This document shows positions 7,746 through 55,202 of a stretch of DNA of 64,000 nucleotides, one piece after another. How positions within the stretch are numbered: position 1 is the first letter of the stretch; each line of letters opens with the position of its first letter. The translations under genes were made by a program, and so were the position numbers. Under the pieces are notes generated by a model, which worked only from the letters and a program-made list of their open reading frames with translations, ran no database searches and was not told the DNA's origin. Source of the stretch: Candidatus Anammoxibacter sp. (lineage in GTDB: Bacteria; Planctomycetota; Brocadiia; Brocadiales; Anammoxibacteraceae); contig JAIQZQ010000001.1 in the NCBI GenBank assembly GCA_021777105.1, positions 49,067 through 113,066 of the forward strand, given 5' to 3'.

Positions 7746-10490
7746 TTATTGGTCTAACGCGCTTAAAGCGGCAGCGAGTCTGGCAATAGGCACTCTGAAT
7801 GGAGAGCAGCTAACGTAATCAAGTCCAATGTCGTGGCAAAATTTAACGGATGAAGGTTCACCGCCATGTTCGCCGCAAATACCGACCTTTAAAGTTGGCC
7901 TGGTAAGCTTGCCTTTTTTAATGCCCATCTTGACCAGTTGGCCAACGCCGTTTTGATCAAGGACTTCAAAAGGATCTTTCTCTAAAATGCCTCGTTTTGT
8001 AAATTCAGGAACAAACGATCCTACATCGTCACGGCTATAGCCAAACGTCATCTGGGTCAAATCATTAGTGCCGAAAGAGAAGAATTCAGCCTCTTTGGCC
8101 ACCTGATTTGCGGCCAGGGCTGCCCTTGGGGTCTCAATCATTGTGCCTATTTTGTAGTCAACTTTTACGCCTTTCTTTTTAATCACATCTTCCGCCACAA
8201 CTTCAACGAGTTCCCTTAATACCCTCATCTCCTCTTCGGTTGTAATAAGAGGTATCATTATTTCAGGGATGACTTTTATGCCTTTCTTTTTGACATTGCA
8301 CGCGGCTTCCATAATAGCCTGGGCCTGCATCTGATAAATTTCAGGATAAGTGATGCCTAAACGGCAGCCTCTATGGCCAAGCATTGGGTTAAGCTCAGCA
8401 AGGCTTTCAACTTTTTTCCTGATATCTTCAACGTCTATCTTCATCTTTTTAGCCAGTTCGGTTTGAAGCTCTTTCTCTTTAGGCAGGAATTCGTGCAAAG
8501 GCGGGTCAAGCAGCCTGATATTAACAGGCAAGCCGTCCATCTCCTTAAATATTTTCTCAAAGTCGCTCCTCTGCGCAGGCAGCAGTTTCTTTAAAGCTCC
8601 GGTATATAGCTGTTCGCAATCTTTGAACTTCTTTTCAACCTTCTTAAGCTCAGTTTTTAGCGCGTCGGCTTTATCTTTTGGCAACTTTTCAAGCTCAACG
8701 TTTTTATCTTTAATTTCCGCCTCAAGAGATTTCACGTCGCCGGCAACCAATATCATCTGTCTTACATTGCCAATGCGGTCTTCATCAAAAAACATATGCT
8801 CAGTTCTGCACAAGCCAATGCCTTCCGCGCCAAACTCGCGGGCGCGCTTGGCGTCCTGAGGGGTGTCGGCGTTTGTCCTTATCTTTAATCTGCGGTAGGA
8901 ATCGGCCCATTTCATAAGTTTTGAGAAATCGCCGCTTAACTTCACCTCAATTGTGGCAAGTTCGCCCAACATGACTTCGCCCGTGCTTCCGTCAAGAGAT
9001 ATAAAATCGCCATCTTTAACAACCTTGCCGCTTACTGAAAACTCTTTTTTCGAGTAGTTCACCTGTATAGAGCCGCAACCCGCCACGCAACACTTGCCCA
9101 TGCCTCTGGCCACAACCGCGGCGTGCGATGTCATGCCGCCTCTTGCTGTAAGTATGCCTTGCGCGGCGTACATGCCGCCTATATCTTCAGGGGAAGTCTC
9201 AACCCTTACAAGTATGACTTTCTGGTTTTTAGAGCCAAGCTCTTCAGCCTCTTCAGCGCTAAAAACAACCTTGCCAGTGGCGGCTCCCGGCGATGCCGGC
9301 AAACCAGTGGCAATAACCTGTCTTTTTGCTTTTGGATCAAAAGTCGGATGAAGCAGTTGGTCCAACTGGCCCGGTTCTACCCTTTGTATAGCGGTCTTTT
9401 TGTCTATTAATTTCTCTTTTTCAAGATCAACGGCAATCTTAACCGCCGCTTGAGCTGTGCGTTTCCCGTTTCTGGTCTGGAGCATGTAAAGCTTGCCGTC
9501 CTGTATTGTAAACTCCATGTCCTGCACATCTTTGTAATGTTTTTCAAGGTTGTCTTTTATGCCGATCAAACGTTCATAAGCATCAGGCATAACCTTTTTC
9601 AGGTCTTCTATAGGGTCTGGAGTGCGAATACCCGCAACGACATCCTCACCCTGCGCGTTTAACAAGAATTCGCCATAGAACTTGTTTTCGCCGGTTGACG
9701 GGTTTCTGGTAAAACACACGCCCGTGGCAGAATTGTCGCCCATGTTGCCGAAAACCATTGTTTGCACCGTAACGGCAGTTCCCAAAAGGCCTTTTATATC
9801 ATATAGTTCTCTGTACTTTATAGCCCTGGGATTATTCCATGATTTAAACACGGCCTCAATAGCCTCGTCCAGCTGTTTTCTGGGAGAGGTTGGAAACTTC
9901 TTGCCCGTGCTCTTTTTATAAATGTCAAAATATTTATCAACCAGCTCTTTAAGCTGTTTAACGCTTAAATCAGTGTCATTTTCGATTTTTGCCTTTTTCT
10001 TCTGTTTCTCAATTTCGACCTCAAACAGTTGACGATCTATGCCTTTTACCACATCGCTAAACATTGTTATAAACCGCCTATATGCATCCCAGGCAAACCG
10101 TTCGTTGCCGGTCTTTTTAATTAAGCCTTCAACCGAGTCTGGATTTAACCCTAAATTCAACACGGTGTCCATCATGCCGGGCATTGATGAAGCGGCTCCG
10201 CTTCGCACTGAAACAAGGAGGGGGTTGTCACTTCCGCCAAGTTCGGCGTCCATAACATTTTGCAATCTGGCTATGTTTTTATCTATCTCTTTAGACAGAT
10301 CCGCCGGAAACTTGTTTTTATTTTTGCTATATTGATCGCATACTTCCGTTGTTATTGTAAAACCGGGAGGCACCGGGATGCCAAGATTTGTCATTTCTGC
10401 CAGGTTCGCGCCTTTGCCCCCTAAAAGCTCTTTCATGTCTGCTTTGCCGTCTGCTCTGCCGTTAGCGAAAAAATAGATAGACTTTCCCAT
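7746..10490 (-). CDS. ppdK: Pyruvate, phosphate dikinase
   Basis: 914 aa. N-terminus GGKGANLAEMTNLGIPVPPGFTI, phospho-His loop GGMTSHAAVVARGMGK, C-terminal PEP-utilising domain GICGEHGGEP. Confidence 0.95.
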   Translation of the reverse strand: MGKSIYFFANGRADGKADMKELLGGKGANLAEMTNLGIPVPPGFTITTEVCDQYSKNKNKFPADLSKEIDKNIARLQNVMDAELGGSDNPLLVSVRSGAASSMPGMMDTVLNLGLNPDSVEGLIKKTGNERFAWDAYRRFITMFSDVVKGIDRQLFEVEIEKQKKKAKIENDTDLSVKQLKELVDKYFDIYKKSTGKKFPTSPRKQLDEAIEAVFKSWNNPRAIKYRELYDIKGLLGTAVTVQTMVFGNMGDNSATGVCFTRNPSTGENKFYGEFLLNAQGEDVVAGIRTPDPIEDLKKVMPDAYERLIGIKDNLEKHYKDVQDMEFTIQDGKLYMLQTRNGKRTAQAAVKIAVDLEKEKLIDKKTAIQRVEPGQLDQLLHPTFDPKAKRQVIATGLPASPGAATGKVVFSAEEAEELGSKNQKVILVRVETSPEDIGGMYAAQGILTARGGMTSHAAVVARGMGKCCVAGCGSIQVNYSKKEFSVSGKVVKDGDFISLDGSTGEVMLGELATIEVKLSGDFSKLMKWADSYRRLKIRTNADTPQDAKRAREFGAEGIGLCRTEHMFFDEDRIGNVRQMILVAGDVKSLEAEIKDKNVELEKLPKDKADALKTELKKVEKKFKDCEQLYTGALKKLLPAQRSDFEKIFKEMDGLPVNIRLLDPPLHEFLPKEKELQTELAKKMKIDVEDIRKKVESLAELNPMLGHRGCRLGITYPEIYQMQAQAIMEAACNVKKKGIKVIPEIMIPLITTEEEMRVLRELVEVVAEDVIKKKGVKVDYKIGTMIETPRAALAANQVAKEAEFFSFGTNDLTQMTFGYSRDDVGSFVPEFTKRGILEKDPFEVLDQNGVGQLVKMGIKKGKLTRPTLKVGICGEHGGEPSSVKFCHDIGLDYVSCSPFRVPIARLAAALSALDQ

Positions 10491-10647
10491 AACATCATCT
10501 CCTTTTGTTTCTACCCCTTTAAAAGCCTAAGCTTTTTTATCGGGAAGCGGCAAATTTAACCGCTTTTAAACAATTAATTATCCAGTAATACAAACTAATG
10601 AAGTCAAAACTTCAAAAACTTTACAAACTTTAAATTAAAATCATGGT

Positions 10648-11955
10648 TTAGCGTTGGAAAACCTTAGCTCCAGGATAAGTAGCGTTTCCGGCTAGTTTTT
10701 CATTTATCCTTAATAGCTGATTATATTTTGCGACCCTGTCGGATCTAGCCATGCTGCCTGTTTTTATCTGACCTGCATTGCACCCAACAGCCAGATCAGC
10801 TATTGTGGTGTCTTCGGTCTCGCCCGATCTGTGAGAAATTACCGCGGTGTATTTATTCTTTTTAGCCAACTTTATGGTGTCAATTGATTCGGTCAGGCTG
10901 CCTATCTGGTTTACTTTAACAAGTATTGAATTGGCGATGCCGTTGTCAATGCCTTCCTGCAGTATTTTCATGTTTGTCACAAATAGGTCGTCGCCTACTA
11001 ATTGAACGCTGCTTCCAAGTTTATCGGTTAAAAGTTTCCACCCCTCCTTGTCGTCCTCAGCCATGCCGTCTTCAATAGACTTGATGGGGAACTCGCTAAC
11101 AAGCGCCGCGTATATATCCACCATCTCCGCTGAAGTAAACTTTTCCGATGCCATTACATAAGAGCCGTCTTTATAAAATTCGCTTGAAGCCGGATCCAAA
11201 GCTATGGCCACATCCTCTCCCGGAGTGTATTCGGCCTGCTCAATAGCGTAGGTTATTAATTTAAGGGCTTGCCTTATAATAGAGACGGCGCCTTTGCCGG
11301 ACTTCATCATCGGGGCAAAACCGCCTTCATCGCCAATACCAACGGCGACGTTGTTGCTTATCCTGGGAACTATTTTATTCAGGCTTTGAAAAATATTCGA
11401 GGCCATCACCATTGCCGACTGAAAACTGTTTGGCCCGATAGGTATAATCATGAACTCCTGAAAATCTATATTATTGTCCGCGTGTTCTCCGCCGTTTAAC
11501 ACATTCATCATAGGCACGGGCAAAACAGTGGGGGTCGCGCCGTAGAGATTAGAGATATGCTCATACAGAGGTATCTTTTGATCCTGCGCCGCGGCCTTTG
11601 CGACAGCCAACGACACGCCTAGGATTGCGTTTGCTCCAAGTTGATGCTTGTCGTCAGTGCCGTCAAGCTCAATCATTTTGTTGTCAATCCCTTCCTGATC
11701 GGAAGCTTCCATGGAAACCACGCCGGGTTTTATTGTCTTTTTTATATTTGCAACCGCGTTTTGAACTCCTTTGCCGAGGTACCTTTTTGAATCCCCATCT
11801 CTTAGCTCAAGGGCCTCCCTCGTTCCGGTTGAAGCGCCGGAAGGGACAGCGGCTGTGCCGACAATCCCATTGCTTAAAACAACGTCCACTTCGACAGTAG
11901 GGTTTCCTCTGGAGTCTAAAATTTCTCTAGCGTTTATAGATTTGATTTTGCTCAT
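10648..11955 (-). CDS. eno: Enolase
   Basis: [25 protein letters not shown] loop, [46 protein letters not shown] and GQIKTG are all present. Confidence 0.95.
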
Positions 11956-12005
11956 ATCTGCCTTTTAACGGGCATGGCCCGGTTATAAAAATTTGCGTGA
12001 TTTTT

Positions 12006-13370
12006 TTAAAAAGAAAATGTATTTTTTGGGTGAAAGACTGCGTTGTTCCCAAGCGCCTCTTCAATGCGCAACAATTGATTGTGTTTAGCTAAACGTTCAG
12101 TTCTTGAAAACCCGCCGGAATGTATCAAATCAATATTGCAGCCAATCGTAATGTCCGCGACAACAGGGTCTTCGGTGTCGCCGATTCCGCTTCGAATCAA
12201 ACTTCTCAATCTATGGTTTTCGCTAAAATTTACCACTTTCAGCAATTCGCTCAGTGTGGGGACACGATCTGTTGATATAACAACATTATTCATAACTCCG
12301 TCACGAATCATTTTTTCCTTGTCTTTCCCCTCGCCAAAGGCAACGTCGTAGCCGGCCACTTGGATTTTTTCTCCAAAATTGCCTGTTAAACCTTGCCAGC
12401 CGCTTGGATCGTCTTCGGCAAAGCAGTTTTCCATAAACACAATAGGGTATTTTTTAGCGATATTTTCATAAAACCGCTGGAGTTCCTTTCTTGATATCTC
12501 TATCTCTTTCTGCTCTGAGTCCGTGAAACAATATCGCGTGCGCTCACTGTAAAATCCGCTGTCGGCGTTGACATTAATTCCAATAAGAATATCCTGACCC
12601 GCTTTGTATCCCGCCAGAGTAATGCTCTTAACAACAATCTCTAAAGCTTCGATTGTGATGGAATCCCAATTACCCACATTTGTGTCTTCGTGAGAGCAAA
12701 ATACCGGCGCATAACCGCCTTGATCGCCTACGGAAGCGCTCATCCCTTTATCGTGCAAAATCTTTTTAGCGGAGTGAAAGACCTCTGCGCCCATCCTTAA
12801 GGCGTCTTTAAAACTAGCGGCTTTAACCGGGGCAACCATTATTGATTGAAAATTCAGATTGTTGTTTGTAAAAATGCCGCCGTCAAAAATATTGATCAAC
12901 GGTATAGGCATCTGATACGTCCTTCTCTTACCGAAAAGGCTTCTGATGTGCTCGTATAAGCTTTTGTCATTGTTCAAAGCTCCGGCTTTTGCGACTGCGC
13001 ATGAAATTGCAAATGTCGTATTAATGATCGAGTTAAACAAATCCTTTTTCCCATTTAAAACAAGCATTTCATAATCTATGCCTTCCTGATTATTAATGTT
13101 CATTGATTTAATCTCAGGAATTAACAACTCGTTTACCTTTTCAATCGCGGCTCCGATCGCTTTATTATAATAGTCCCGCATAGGCTCCAACGAGACAACC
13201 TTGCCAAAGGAGTTGGTGTCGTAATACCTCTGTTGCTCTTTAATATTAAAAGTTTTTGGAGCCGAGGCATTTGTGCATATGCCGTTATCTAACAGCACTT
13301 CCGCTTCAATAGTTGGGTTGCTGGTCGAATCATAAATTTTTCTAAGTATAATCTTTTCTATATTTGCCAT
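12006..13370 (-). CDS. Enolase-fold paralog lacking most catalytic residues (pseudo-enolase)
   Basis: Colinear with the adjacent eno (N-terminus IYDSTSNPTIEAEV, C-terminus RTERLAKHNQLLRIEEALG), but the catalytic or metal motifs are replaced. See finding. Confidence 0.8.
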   Translation of the reverse strand: MANIEKIILRKIYDSTSNPTIEAEVLLDNGICTNASAPKTFNIKEQQRYYDTNSFGKVVSLEPMRDYYNKAIGAAIEKVNELLIPEIKSMNINNQEGIDYEMLVLNGKKDLFNSIINTTFAISCAVAKAGALNNDKSLYEHIRSLFGKRRTYQMPIPLINIFDGGIFTNNNLNFQSIMVAPVKAASFKDALRMGAEVFHSAKKILHDKGMSASVGDQGGYAPVFCSHEDTNVGNWDSITIEALEIVVKSITLAGYKAGQDILIGINVNADSGFYSERTRYCFTDSEQKEIEISRKELQRFYENIAKKYPIVFMENCFAEDDPSGWQGLTGNFGEKIQVAGYDVAFGEGKDKEKMIRDGVMNNVVISTDRVPTLSELLKVVNFSENHRLRSLIRSGIGDTEDPVVADITIGCNIDLIHSGGFSRTERLAKHNQLLRIEEALGNNAVFHPKNTFSF

Positions 13371-20104: not shown

Positions 20105-20171
20105 AATTAATTTTCCATCAAAAACTTTTAATATTAAATATAATAAAATTCAGTTAATCTTTAACATCATT

Positions 20172-20304
20172 GTTCCCAAACCCCAGTTTGGGAACGAAAG
20201 AATTCAAGAAGCCCCAGCTTCGCGCGCAAAAGCGCTATACTTACACTCGAACACGAAGCAGGGGCTTCTTGAATTGCCGGTTACCAGGCATGGGCCTGGT
20301 AACC
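20172..20304. repeat. Cluster of REP-like hairpins in the hisS-aspS spacer
   Basis: Three hairpins. (1) gttcccaaa-ccccag-tttgggaac at 20172-20195. (2) A 15-bp long-range stem, gaattcaagaagcccc...ggggcttcttgaatt, at 20200-20276. (3) ggttaccagg-catggg-cctggtaacc at 20279-20304. Confidence 0.6.
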
Positions 20305-20341
20305 AGATCGCTGTCTAAGCGTTTCAAATAACGATAAACAA

Positions 20342-52128: not shown

Positions 52129-52277
52129 GTTGGGTAGAGGTACGAAACCCAACATATATTTGCCGCGGGTGGGTTGTCGCAAAACCAAGCTTGTTACAAG
52201 GCTCCCGCCTTGTAACACACTGTTCCAAGAGGCTCAGCCTCTTACCTCTGTGTCGTAACCAAACTCCAGTTTGGAAC
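52129..52277. repeat. Cluster of REP-like hairpins downstream of lepB
   Basis: gttggg...cccaac (52129-52153), gttacaagg-ctcccg-ccttgtaac (52193-52216), aagaggc-tca-gcctctt (52227-52243), gtaaccaaa-ctccag-tttggaac (52255-52277). Confidence 0.6.
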
Positions 52278-52352
52278 CAGATAAATTTATTTACGCCATA
52301 AAAAACGTAAATCACGCCTGAATTGAGGGCTTTTAAAATCCATATAAATAGT

Positions 52353-52529: not shown

Positions 52530-53495
52530 ATGGTTTTGAATATGCTTAAAAATTTCAGATTTGCAAAATTCAGGTTTATTTTAACGGCGGATGAAGATAT
52601 ATCGCTGCCGGCTTATAAAGGCGCTGTTTTAAGGGGCGGTTTTGGATATGTCTTTAAAAAAATGGTTTGCGCGCAACAGTTTGCCGATTCCTGCTCAAAA
52701 TGCATGTTGCGCAACAATTGCGCCTATGCTTACATATTTGAGACGCCACTGCCGGCAGACGCCCAAAAGCTCCGCTCATATAACGCCATACCCCATCCGT
52801 TTGTAATTGAGCCGCCTAATGACACCGTGCGTATTGTGCGTAAAGGCTTTGACACTGAGTTTAATCTCGCGCTAATAGGCAATGCCGTCGATTATTTGCC
52901 ATATTTTGTCATTACTTTTATTGAACTCGGCAAAAAAGGGTTAGGGCGAAACAAGAGCAGGTATATTTTGAAAGATGTTCAAAGCCTGGATATGGCCGGC
53001 AAGGCCATATCCATATTTAACAGCGCATCCGGCGCTCTGGCCGGCGACTTTACCGTTTTAACCGGAGACATGTTTGAGTCCACGGATAAAGGGAGCGCTG
53101 ATGATCAGATCAGTCTGGAGTTTTTAACGCAATGCCGCATTAAATTTAACGAAAAATTTACCTGTAACATTGAATTTCATATCCTTATCAGAAACATGCT
53201 TCGCCGTTTGTCTACCCTTTCCCTATTCCATTGCGGCAATGAGCTTGAATACGATTATAAAGAGCTAATCGAAAAAGCAAACAGCGTTAAAACCATAAAG
53301 AATTCACTGCAATGGCGCGATTGGGAACGGTACTCAACCAGGCAAAAACAGAAAATGGCCCTTGGAGGCGCAATAGGAAGCATAACATACCAGGGCGATC
53401 TTGCCCCTTTTTTGACTCTCCTTAAATTAGGCGAATATATCCATGTAGGCAAAGGCACAAGTTTCGGCCTGGGAAAGTATGTTATTAATCAATAG
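52530..53495 (+). CDS. cas6: Cas6-family CRISPR endoribonuclease (RAMP)
   Basis: FRFILTADEDISLPAYKGAVLRGGFGYVFKKMVC...C.KC.L...CAYAYIFETP, plus the C-terminal glycine-rich loop HVGKGTSFGLGKY. Start moved to ATG 52530 (ggaaagga RBS) because 52455-52529 is repeat DNA. ATG 52542 is also possible. Confidence 0.75.
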   Translation: MVLNMLKNFRFAKFRFILTADEDISLPAYKGAVLRGGFGYVFKKMVCAQQFADSCSKCMLRNNCAYAYIFETPLPADAQKLRSYNAIPHPFVIEPPNDTVRIVRKGFDTEFNLALIGNAVDYLPYFVITFIELGKKGLGRNKSRYILKDVQSLDMAGKAISIFNSASGALAGDFTVLTGDMFESTDKGSADDQISLEFLTQCRIKFNEKFTCNIEFHILIRNMLRRLSTLSLFHCGNELEYDYKELIEKANSVKTIKNSLQWRDWERYSTRQKQKMALGGAIGSITYQGDLAPFLTLLKLGEYIHVGKGTSFGLGKYVINQ

Positions 53496-53680
53496 CTCCC
53501 TCTTTTAAAGCATCGTATAATGTATCCACTTATCCTGTAAAATCCCAATATATTAGAGTTCCCAAAAACCAGCGCAAATGGCGGATCAATCATGCTGGTT
53601 GATCCAAAATGACAAAAATATATTGCGTAGCCCCTAACCCGGATAACGGGAAAAATAAAAAGGTCGAACAATATTGAATC

Positions 53681-53860
53681 GTAACCAAACTCCTGTTTGG
53701 TTACGCAATTGCCCGAGAAACTCCGGTTTCTCGTTTAGCTTGCCGGCATGATACACGAAACTGGAGTTTCTCCCCTCAGGGGATAATTCTCACTAAGGTA
53801 GCCAAGCGGCTAAGTGTTCATTTATCGGGCAATTACGTTCCAAAATCGGAGTTTTGGAAC
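53681..53860. repeat. Composite hairpin cluster / candidate structured RNA between cas6 and the CARF gene
   Basis: Hairpins at 53681-53704, 53714-53733, 53757-53770 and 53837-53860, the 53-nt repeat at 53772-53824, and a long-range pairing of gcaattgcccg (53705-53715) with cgggcaatta (53826-53835). Confidence 0.55.
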
Positions 53861-54152
53861 GAGCCGCGGGATAGAGAGTTAAAATATCTTGTCAAAACTT
53901 TACTTATAATCCCCTAAGACAACATGCTGCTACGTGGCAATAACATACAGTAACTATAACAATTTACTTCAAGTCACAACCACGATCAACGCTAACCATC
54001 CTGCTTAATTTACGCCAAATTATGTGTTTTTTTTACAAAACCTATTGATTATCCGGTTTTATCCTGCTATACTTTTTCACATAATACTTGTATGTACGAA
54101 TAGTTTTATATTGAAATACGAAACCGCATAATCAATAACGGGCAAATTGAAA

Positions 54153-55202
54153 ATGGACAATTTTAATACCCTTGTTTTACTTGTAGGCACAAATCCACTC
54201 CCTAATTTTGTGGTAGCGGAATATTATCTGCAAATTAATCCAAATATTCAATCTATCCGGCTTATCCATTCAGAAGCCAACAGCTTGCAGGCCGGCACGG
54301 CTAAACAAGTTCAAAATTTAGAAGCCTTGCTCCAAAAACGTTGGCGTGATAAACACACAAGTCTACAATTTCCTCTGGACAAAATATCAATATCAGATGT
54401 AAGCAACGCTATGACCATCAGAAGTGAAATTGAGAGGAAATTGGTTAAAAAACTAGACAGTTCATGCAAATTACACCTTAATTATACCGGCGGCACGAAA
54501 GCGATGGCAAACCATGCTTATTTATGTTTTAAGGAGTTGCAGGGCTCAATTTCATGTCAATTTTCATATTTAGACGGCAACAATTTTCGACTGATCGCGG
54601 ATGATTACGGCATCGTTGATAATGATTTGCGGCGAAAAGTAAGGATAGGTTTTGCCGAGTTAATAAAATTACACGGTTTTACGAGATTTAATAAAGATAG
54701 CGCCCCCGATTTTGACAATACCAAAGAGATGTTTCAAAAGTTCATTGAGCCGGCCCCGACGCAACAGCTTAAGGACGGCTACTGGTTGGAGGATTATATA
54801 GCCGCGACTCTCACTGAAAAGTTTAAAGACCTATTAAATAGCAATGAAGGCGCTTTACGAAATTGGAAAATTAAAAAACCTGATTGGGGGACACATTTTG
54901 AATTGGATGTCATGTTGCTGCATGGTTACCAATTTACAGGCATTTCATGCACTATTGGGCATAACAAAGACACATGCAAATCCAAAGGTTTTGAAATAGC
55001 GTTAAGGTCAAGGCAAATAGGCGGAGATAACGCAAAATCTATCCTTATTACAGGTTCAAATAAAACGCAAAACATTAAGTTGCAGGAGGAGCTTGTGATT
55101 GAGACAGGGGAAAGCCTTGGCAATATTTTAGCGCTTGGCGTTGAAGATTTAAGAAATGAGGATTTATATATAACCAAGATTGAAGATTTCATCTTTGGTT
55201 AA
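54153..55202 (+). CDS. CARF-domain protein with a Card1/Can2-like (DUF1887, PD-D/ExK-fold) C-terminal domain whose catalytic motif looks degenerate
   Basis: N-terminus LVLLVGTNPLPNFV and NYTGGTKAM (CARF hallmarks). C-terminus GYWLEDYIAATL...FELDVMLL...FTGISCTIG...K.KGFEIALRSRQIGGDNAKSILI. ATG 54153 is preferred over TTG 54147. Confidence 0.65.
   Translation: MDNFNTLVLLVGTNPLPNFVVAEYYLQINPNIQSIRLIHSEANSLQAGTAKQVQNLEALLQKRWRDKHTSLQFPLDKISISDVSNAMTIRSEIERKLVKKLDSSCKLHLNYTGGTKAMANHAYLCFKELQGSISCQFSYLDGNNFRLIADDYGIVDNDLRRKVRIGFAELIKLHGFTRFNKDSAPDFDNTKEMFQKFIEPAPTQQLKDGYWLEDYIAATLTEKFKDLLNSNEGALRNWKIKKPDWGTHFELDVMLLHGYQFTGISCTIGHNKDTCKSKGFEIALRSRQIGGDNAKSILITGSNKTQNIKLQEELVIETGESLGNILALGVEDLRNEDLYITKIEDFIFG

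Follow-up and report, generated by a model that had tools for sequence, protein, structure and literature searches.

Nested dispersed repeats probably account for a hairpin-rich spacer between cas6 and a CARF gene

The hairpin-rich region that separates cas6 from a CARF gene in the DNA analysed here (a stretch of 64,000 nucleotides, called the window) is most probably, at roughly 0.88, a set of nested selfish or dispersed palindromic repeats and not a CRISPR component. An earlier note on this DNA had listed a pile-up of REP-like insertions among its options, and this option was borne out: the palindrome and a 54-nt unit within it belong to two separate dispersed families, a close copy of the palindrome on contig C16 has an empty insertion site and another on contig C123 carries an insertion at the mirror-image site. 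The genome that contains the window, G000, is a draft of 7.65 Mb in 142 contigs (93.6% complete, 5.5% estimated contamination), and the window ends 713 nt short of the end of its contig, C1. The features to which the argument refers are given below, where R1 is a covariance model built from a 21-copy alignment of the palindromic family.

20156-20313: full palindromic copy in the window (model R1, 139 bits)
52183-52293, + strand: degenerate palindromic copy upstream of cas6 (model R1, 26.5 bits, E 6e-5)
52530-53495, + strand: cas6 (Pfam CRISPR_Cas6, E 9e-19), upstream neighbour of the hairpin region
53631-53660, unstranded: left-flank multi-copy module CCCTAACCCGGATAA..., 13-mers present 57-61 times in the genome, aligning with C16 upstream of the palindrome
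53674-53770, unstranded: palindromic element, left part, with hairpin A (53680-53705), linker GCAATTGCC, hairpin B (53714-53733), centre (53734-53756) and hairpin B' up to the insertion point
53771-53824, + strand: 54-nt two-hairpin repeat at TTTC^TC, with a 2-nt phasing ambiguity (equally 53773-53826)
53825-53866, unstranded: palindromic element, right part, with linker (c)GGGCAATTA and hairpin A' (53836-53861), 13-mers present 7-25 times, aligning with C16 and C123
53867-53897, unstranded: right-flank module ending TAAAATATCTTGTCAAAA, 13-mers present 12-48 times in the genome, common to the C16 and C123 copies
53911-54080, + strand: unique segment, 86% conserved downstream of both cas6 paralogues (BLAST against C88:40733-40900; alignment)
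54147-55202, + strand: CARF gene (Pfam CARF_Card1, E 4e-4, below the curated cut-off), downstream neighbour

The individual hairpins that the earlier note had listed (53681-53704, 53714-53733, 53757-53770 and 53837-53860) were all recovered at those coordinates, together with one copy of the 53/54-nt repeat among them and the complementarity of gcaattgcccg (53705-53715) to cgggcaatta (53826-53835). They are parts of one large imperfect palindrome. In an inverted-repeat scan, its outer arms of 42 nt (53679-53720 and 53821-53862) were 76% complementary and its inner arms of 16 nt (53715-53730 and 53757-53772) were 94% complementary. It had further been supposed that a closing long-range pairing encloses three stems. 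The gcaattgcc/ggcaatt pairing is real and forms part of one palindrome with a central helix, but the second and third hairpins are not separate stems; in the minimum-energy fold, they pair with each other to give one long central helix, and 53674-53866 as a whole becomes a single long helix with terminal hairpins. Computed folding, a check that the note had recommended, gave -82.8 kcal/mol for 53674-53866, as against -47.4 ± 4.4 kcal/mol for shuffled sequences (n = 200, z -8.1, no shuffle as good), and the opposite strand gave -80.2 kcal/mol (z -8.0). Since both strands fold equally well, the predicted structures point to a DNA palindrome rather than to a strand-specific RNA.

The palindrome is a multi-copy and extragenic sequence. 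A 13-mer copy-number profile over the whole 7.65-Mb genome confined multi-copy words to approximately 53605-53897, with peak counts within 53631-53897, and showed 53496-53604 and 53900-54146 to be essentially single-copy. With a family HMM made from full-length copies, 164 distinct loci were found in the genome, 41 of them near full length (median 148 nt). The unit of about 140-170 nt consists of hairpin A, a linker, hairpin B and a centre, followed by the mirror images, with GCAATTG as the linker of the arm. The conserved core runs from TCTGGTTACC... through ...GGGAGCGAGGTG, and the family consensus opens with TCTGG... and closes with ...CGAGGTG. Two subfamilies, one with CTCC loops and the other with CCCC loops, have identical architecture, and the compensatory changes between them preserve pairing, both sides being changed in 12 of the 28 predicted pairs of the 21-copy alignment. 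A single midpoint out of 164 falls inside an ORF of at least 150 aa, though such ORFs make up 72.8% of the genome.

The copy studied here is matched by model R1 at 53671-53792 (71.6 bits, E 9e-16), and its displaced right arm is matched separately at 53830-53861 (27.7 bits). Its left part has 99% identity with G000:C16:441-539 (BLAST; three-way alignment A1). The close copy to which this match belongs, C16:441-611, is 99% identical over 53674-53772 and has hypothetical and PKD-domain genes as neighbours, and another close copy, C123:11589-11815, has an ORF6N gene on one side and a PKS-NRPS gene on the other; no cas genes were found beside either of them. Upstream of cas6, the degenerate copy contains a solo hairpin-A arm (52253-52274; direct repeat D18, 95% identical to 53679-53700). 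It was also observed that cas6 is bracketed by members of the palindromic family, with 52183-52293 upstream and the hairpin region downstream, and that short modules such as those at 53631-53650 (CCCTAACCCGGAT, 57-61 copies) and 53879-53897 (TAAAATATCTTGTCAAAA, up to 48 copies) occur beside many palindromic elements. The combination of flanking short modules and palindromes is a BIME-like mosaic. No consistent direct repeat that could represent a target-site duplication was found flanking 16 anchored copies of the palindrome. Its mobility would follow from the distribution of the family and not from an unoccupied counterpart of this locus.

The second family is represented by the 54-nt unit, of which 281 anchor-defined copies are present in the genome. 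The stretch 53768-53826 has more than 200 genome matches on both strands (about 219-243 by BLAST), often in tandem. Each unit combines a short GC hairpin (CCCCTCAGGGG) with the conserved word ATAATTCTCACTA, then a second hairpin with compensatory variation in its stem, and AGTGTTCATTTA as its conserved end. Midpoints of this repeat lie inside ORFs of at least 150 aa, which cover 72.8% of the genome, in 2 of 219 cases. Tandem copies follow 31 of the 281, in arrays that reach 4-6 units, and 32 of the 281 are nested in another copy, all at one internal place, AATTC^TCACT. When 30 relatives were searched with the whole region, the repeat was not found in any of them, so that G000 stands alone among the 31 genomes.

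Empty and filled insertion sites of the 54-nt unit are both present in the genome. At C16:441-611 the site is empty (...GAGTTTCTC|GGACAATT) and the sequence runs straight on into GGACAATTACG..., and in C123:11589-11815 a unit of reversed orientation occupies the mirror-image site, in the left arm. The empty site on C16, the insertions in the window and on C123 and the 32 nested copies all fit TTC^TC, and with the 2-nt phasing ambiguity these junctions fit no duplication and a 2-bp TC duplication equally. The presence of a TTC^TC word within the unit itself would explain its self-nesting.

The covariance search across relatives that the earlier note had recommended was run with model R1, and matches were found on both strands in 56 of 92 same-order genomes, at least 32 per genome in many of the 56. 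The palindrome is thus order-wide, with an uneven spread among families (42 of 47 genomes in one, 0 of 14 in another). The order in question is taken to be the anammox Brocadiales, because an ORF of about 810-826 aa with a hydrazine-synthase alpha domain was present in all four genomes tested, G000 included. In one relative, G017, the hairpin arm of the palindrome constitutes the subterminal part of a MITE of about 235 nt. The 19-nt terminal repeat of this MITE, GTAACTATTCAGCGTAAAC, has 137 copies and is shared with a Tn5-like transposase element; the element that it bounds codes for a Tn5-like transposase of 743 aa that has a DruA-like domain at its N terminus. This terminal repeat is absent from the copy studied here, and none of the related TIR words in G000 adjoins it. 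In G017 (L061 532-2763 and L060 264-1316 for these observations), a GTAACTATTCAGCGTAAAC pair 1670 nt apart also surrounds a transposase gene of the IS110 family, an arrangement that may have arisen when an IS110 element entered such a MITE. In the same complete genome (G017:C1:2962560-2962790; L009 approximately 1470-1700), an arm-bearing MITE of about 235 nt was observed within a CRISPR repeat, GTTTCAATTCCTCATAGGTAGAATGAAAAC, bordered by direct GAATGAAA, a possible 8-bp duplication.

The earlier note had expected an array or leader at the spot between cas6 and the CARF gene, an expectation that gains no support from relatives, in which CARF-cas10 operons have neither cas6 nor an array upstream. 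In six same-order genomes, orthologues of the CARF gene are followed by cas10 (in the window, cas10 and RAMP genes lie 3' of the CARF gene), and no cas6, CRISPR array or hairpin core was detected within 1.5-6 kb upstream of the six orthologous pairs. The spot is therefore not one where an array or leader is conserved. The orthologous CARF frames (L022-L027: G058, G026, G046, G011, G051, G020) are 428-458 aa long in five of the six genomes, compared with 351 aa here, and the orthologues have an extra segment between the parts that correspond to residues 203 and 208 of the protein encoded here.

A paralogue of cas6 with 94% identity is located at G000:C88:39712-40577 and has no palindrome downstream. 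A diverged 54-nt unit is found at the very 3' end of this gene, followed by a 170-nt segment that is 86% identical to 53911-54080, and the genes beyond the shared segment are unrelated between the two loci. In this region (G000:C88:39712-42255; L018 approximately 9713-12256), the paralogous cas6 lies downstream of polysaccharide-synthesis genes. The 170-nt segment is followed by a 288-aa ORF without a Pfam match, and the contig terminates in a CRISPR repeat (...ACATTGACCTGATTTATAAGGGATTGAGAC). This ORF and the CARF protein are unrelated. Elsewhere in the genome, C140:166958-167133 holds a third cas6-like sequence, which is more distant.

Genes for Cas6 often adjoin arrays, and contig C88 ends in its CRISPR repeat 1.6 kb downstream of the paralogous cas6, which would suit the idea that the region is a decayed remnant of an array or leader that once followed cas6. 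However, no direct repeats with array spacing were found in the spacer and an array scan of contig C1 gave none, the best matches of the spacer to the six CRISPR repeat types of the genome were within shuffle range, and the dispersed families account fully for the repeated sequence; a remnant of this kind is hardly credible. CRISPR arrays with at least four repeat types were observed elsewhere in the genome (contigs C47, C20, C67, C16, C140 and C73), and the type III locus of the window could draw its crRNAs from one of these.

The same comparisons bear on two further options of the earlier note, a structured non-coding RNA and a non-canonical guide or regulatory RNA for the adjacent effector, here read as an RNA specific to this locus that Cas6 or the type III effector would bind. 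All that speaks for them is that the region stands between cas6 and the genes of the effector, with a strong predicted structure. Resemblance to the six repeat types does not exceed the shuffle level, the 8-nt handles ATTGAGAC and ATTGAAAC are absent from the spacer, and the composite is missing from the paralogous cas6 locus and the orthologous CARF-cas10 loci; the guide option found no footing in these results. The first option fared no better, as the element has 164 loci, with unrelated genes beside them, was matched in 56 of 92 genomes of the order and is equally stable on both strands. No match was obtained in the window with Rfam 15 at the gathering score, and with E up to 10 there was one chance-level match (E 6.7) in 53300-54300. 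No tRNA or tmRNA genes were found, and no phage or plasmid matched the spacer. An RNA dedicated to this locus is therefore regarded as very improbable, if slightly less so than an array remnant. Cas6 relatives in named genomes were about 43% identical, came from unrelated phyla and were of no help on the spacer; metagenome scans with the CARF protein, and with a 23-nt word of the conserved 170-nt segment, found nothing.

An RNA function of a different kind, exerted in cis, has to be weighed as well. Terminating, stabilising or insulating roles are reported for some REP or BIME elements, and the stem-loops here may have been exapted to terminate or stabilise the cas6 transcript, or to insulate cas6 from the CARF-cas10 operon. 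The palindromic element lies about 180 nt beyond the end of cas6, has a separate promoter-like site downstream of it and folds very stably, and one of its hairpins (53714-53733) was scored as terminator-like, its T tail being weak. Within the spacer, the promoter scan ranked TTGATT-17-TATACT at 54045-54073 highest; this site is inside the 53911-54080 segment and is likely to be the promoter of the CARF-cas10 operon. REPs are also described as lying mostly 3' of genes and are thought to act as RNA elements, in one account (PMC3733652). On the other hand, no proper T-run follows the stems of the 53674-53866 element, the paralogous cas6 locus has no palindrome, the identical element type adjoins unrelated genes and this copy is indistinguishable from the other 163. 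Exaptation is thus unlikely, and nested dispersed repeats are still the preferred reading.

According to the preferred reading, an extragenic palindrome about 140-170 nt long would have landed, or been copied, downstream of cas6, and its right arm would later have received one 54-nt two-hairpin repeat at TTTC^TC. Both families would have spread as non-autonomous elements mobilised in trans, their hairpins being recognised in single-stranded DNA in a REP/REPIN-like or IS200/IS605-like manner, and the 54-nt unit would prefer TTC^TC sites while carrying one itself. Any effect on the locus would be incidental: a stable stem-loop 3' of cas6 may protect its transcript or bring about termination, and the CARF-cas10 operon would use its own promoter at approximately 54045-54073.

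A search for a mobilising enzyme was made in G000. Eight Y1_Tnp matches were found in the genome, none of which is flanked by either family. Neither the 54-nt repeat nor the hairpin core lies within 1.5 kb of them, and a lone palindrome was seen 1.5 kb from one of them. The left and right ends of the 54-nt repeat never occur 150-4000 nt apart in the assembly, as would be expected of an autonomous relative, except for one case of 297 nt, and no parent insertion sequence with the ends of the palindrome was seen in G000. It is possible, though we would not bet on it, that the 54-nt unit is an unusually small, currently active element that inserts at TTC^TC and is mobilised in trans without a linked enzyme, and that the order-wide palindrome is a REPIN-like anammox replicator that persists without a RAYT. 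No description of such an active 54-nt element or of a RAYT-less REPIN-like anammox replicator was found in the literature searched, and searches for repeats described in anammox genomes gave nothing relevant.

For CRISPR biology, the hairpin region is of low interest. It serves as a caution that, in a repeat-rich genome, strongly structured intergenic DNA next to cas genes does not count as evidence for an RNA linked to CRISPR. For the annotation of the type III locus, it means that junk repeats separate cas6 from a CARF-cas10 operon that is apparently served by a separate promoter. As a resource, the two repeat families are modest, one being order-wide in probable anammox bacteria and the other lineage-specific and self-nesting; either could be used to type strains and to study the spread of miniature elements for which no transposase is linked.

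Among known systems, the palindromic family can be compared with REPINs, or REP doublets (Bertels and Rainey 2011, PMC3116915), and with the BIME mosaics of E. coli, which are likewise high-copy short extragenic palindromes. As in REPINs, two inverted arms enclose a short spacer, and a long hairpin is predicted for the whole when it is single-stranded DNA or RNA. Solo arms occur as well as doublets, in a mosaic with short modules, and the family persists through a whole bacterial order. Unlike typical REPINs, the arm here consists of two hairpins and the unit is longer (about 140 nt). REP stems carry an unpaired GTAG or CGTC tag at one end, as described in PMC3733652; the stems at this locus are bordered by ATCG/GCAA and TTAC/GAGC, no GTAG or CGTC tag stands next to the stems of the family, and no RAYT flanked by these repeats is present in the assembly. 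Membership of the REPIN-RAYT class, for which both the tag and the cognate transposase were looked for, was rejected.

The MITEs of the Correia/NEMIS type in Neisseria and of the ERIC type in enterobacteria are similar to the palindrome in being non-coding units of 100-200 nt with long imperfect TIRs, intergenic and present in many copies. Units of these types are often co-transcribed with their neighbours. The palindrome differs from them in the lack of a visible target-site duplication (16 copies) and of a parent IS in G000, and for these reasons was not assigned to the classical MITEs.

Palindrome-associated elements derived from IS200/IS605 are far longer than the 54-nt insert, for which the search of G000 gave no cognate TnpA or TnpB whose ends match. 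The insert resembles them in having two same-strand hairpins near its ends, in lying beside a fixed word, TTC^TC, with no evident duplication (a 2-bp TC duplication fits equally), and in that its copies insert into and beside one another. In the repeat-rich genome of Nostoc punctiforme, small dispersed hairpin repeats, also named in PMC3116915, reportedly nest inside other repeats (Elhai et al. 2008); they would be alike in being tiny, nesting and hairpin-forming, and differ in phylum and in sequence. Taken with these systems, the palindrome behaves like selfish DNA of the REP/REPIN or MITE type.
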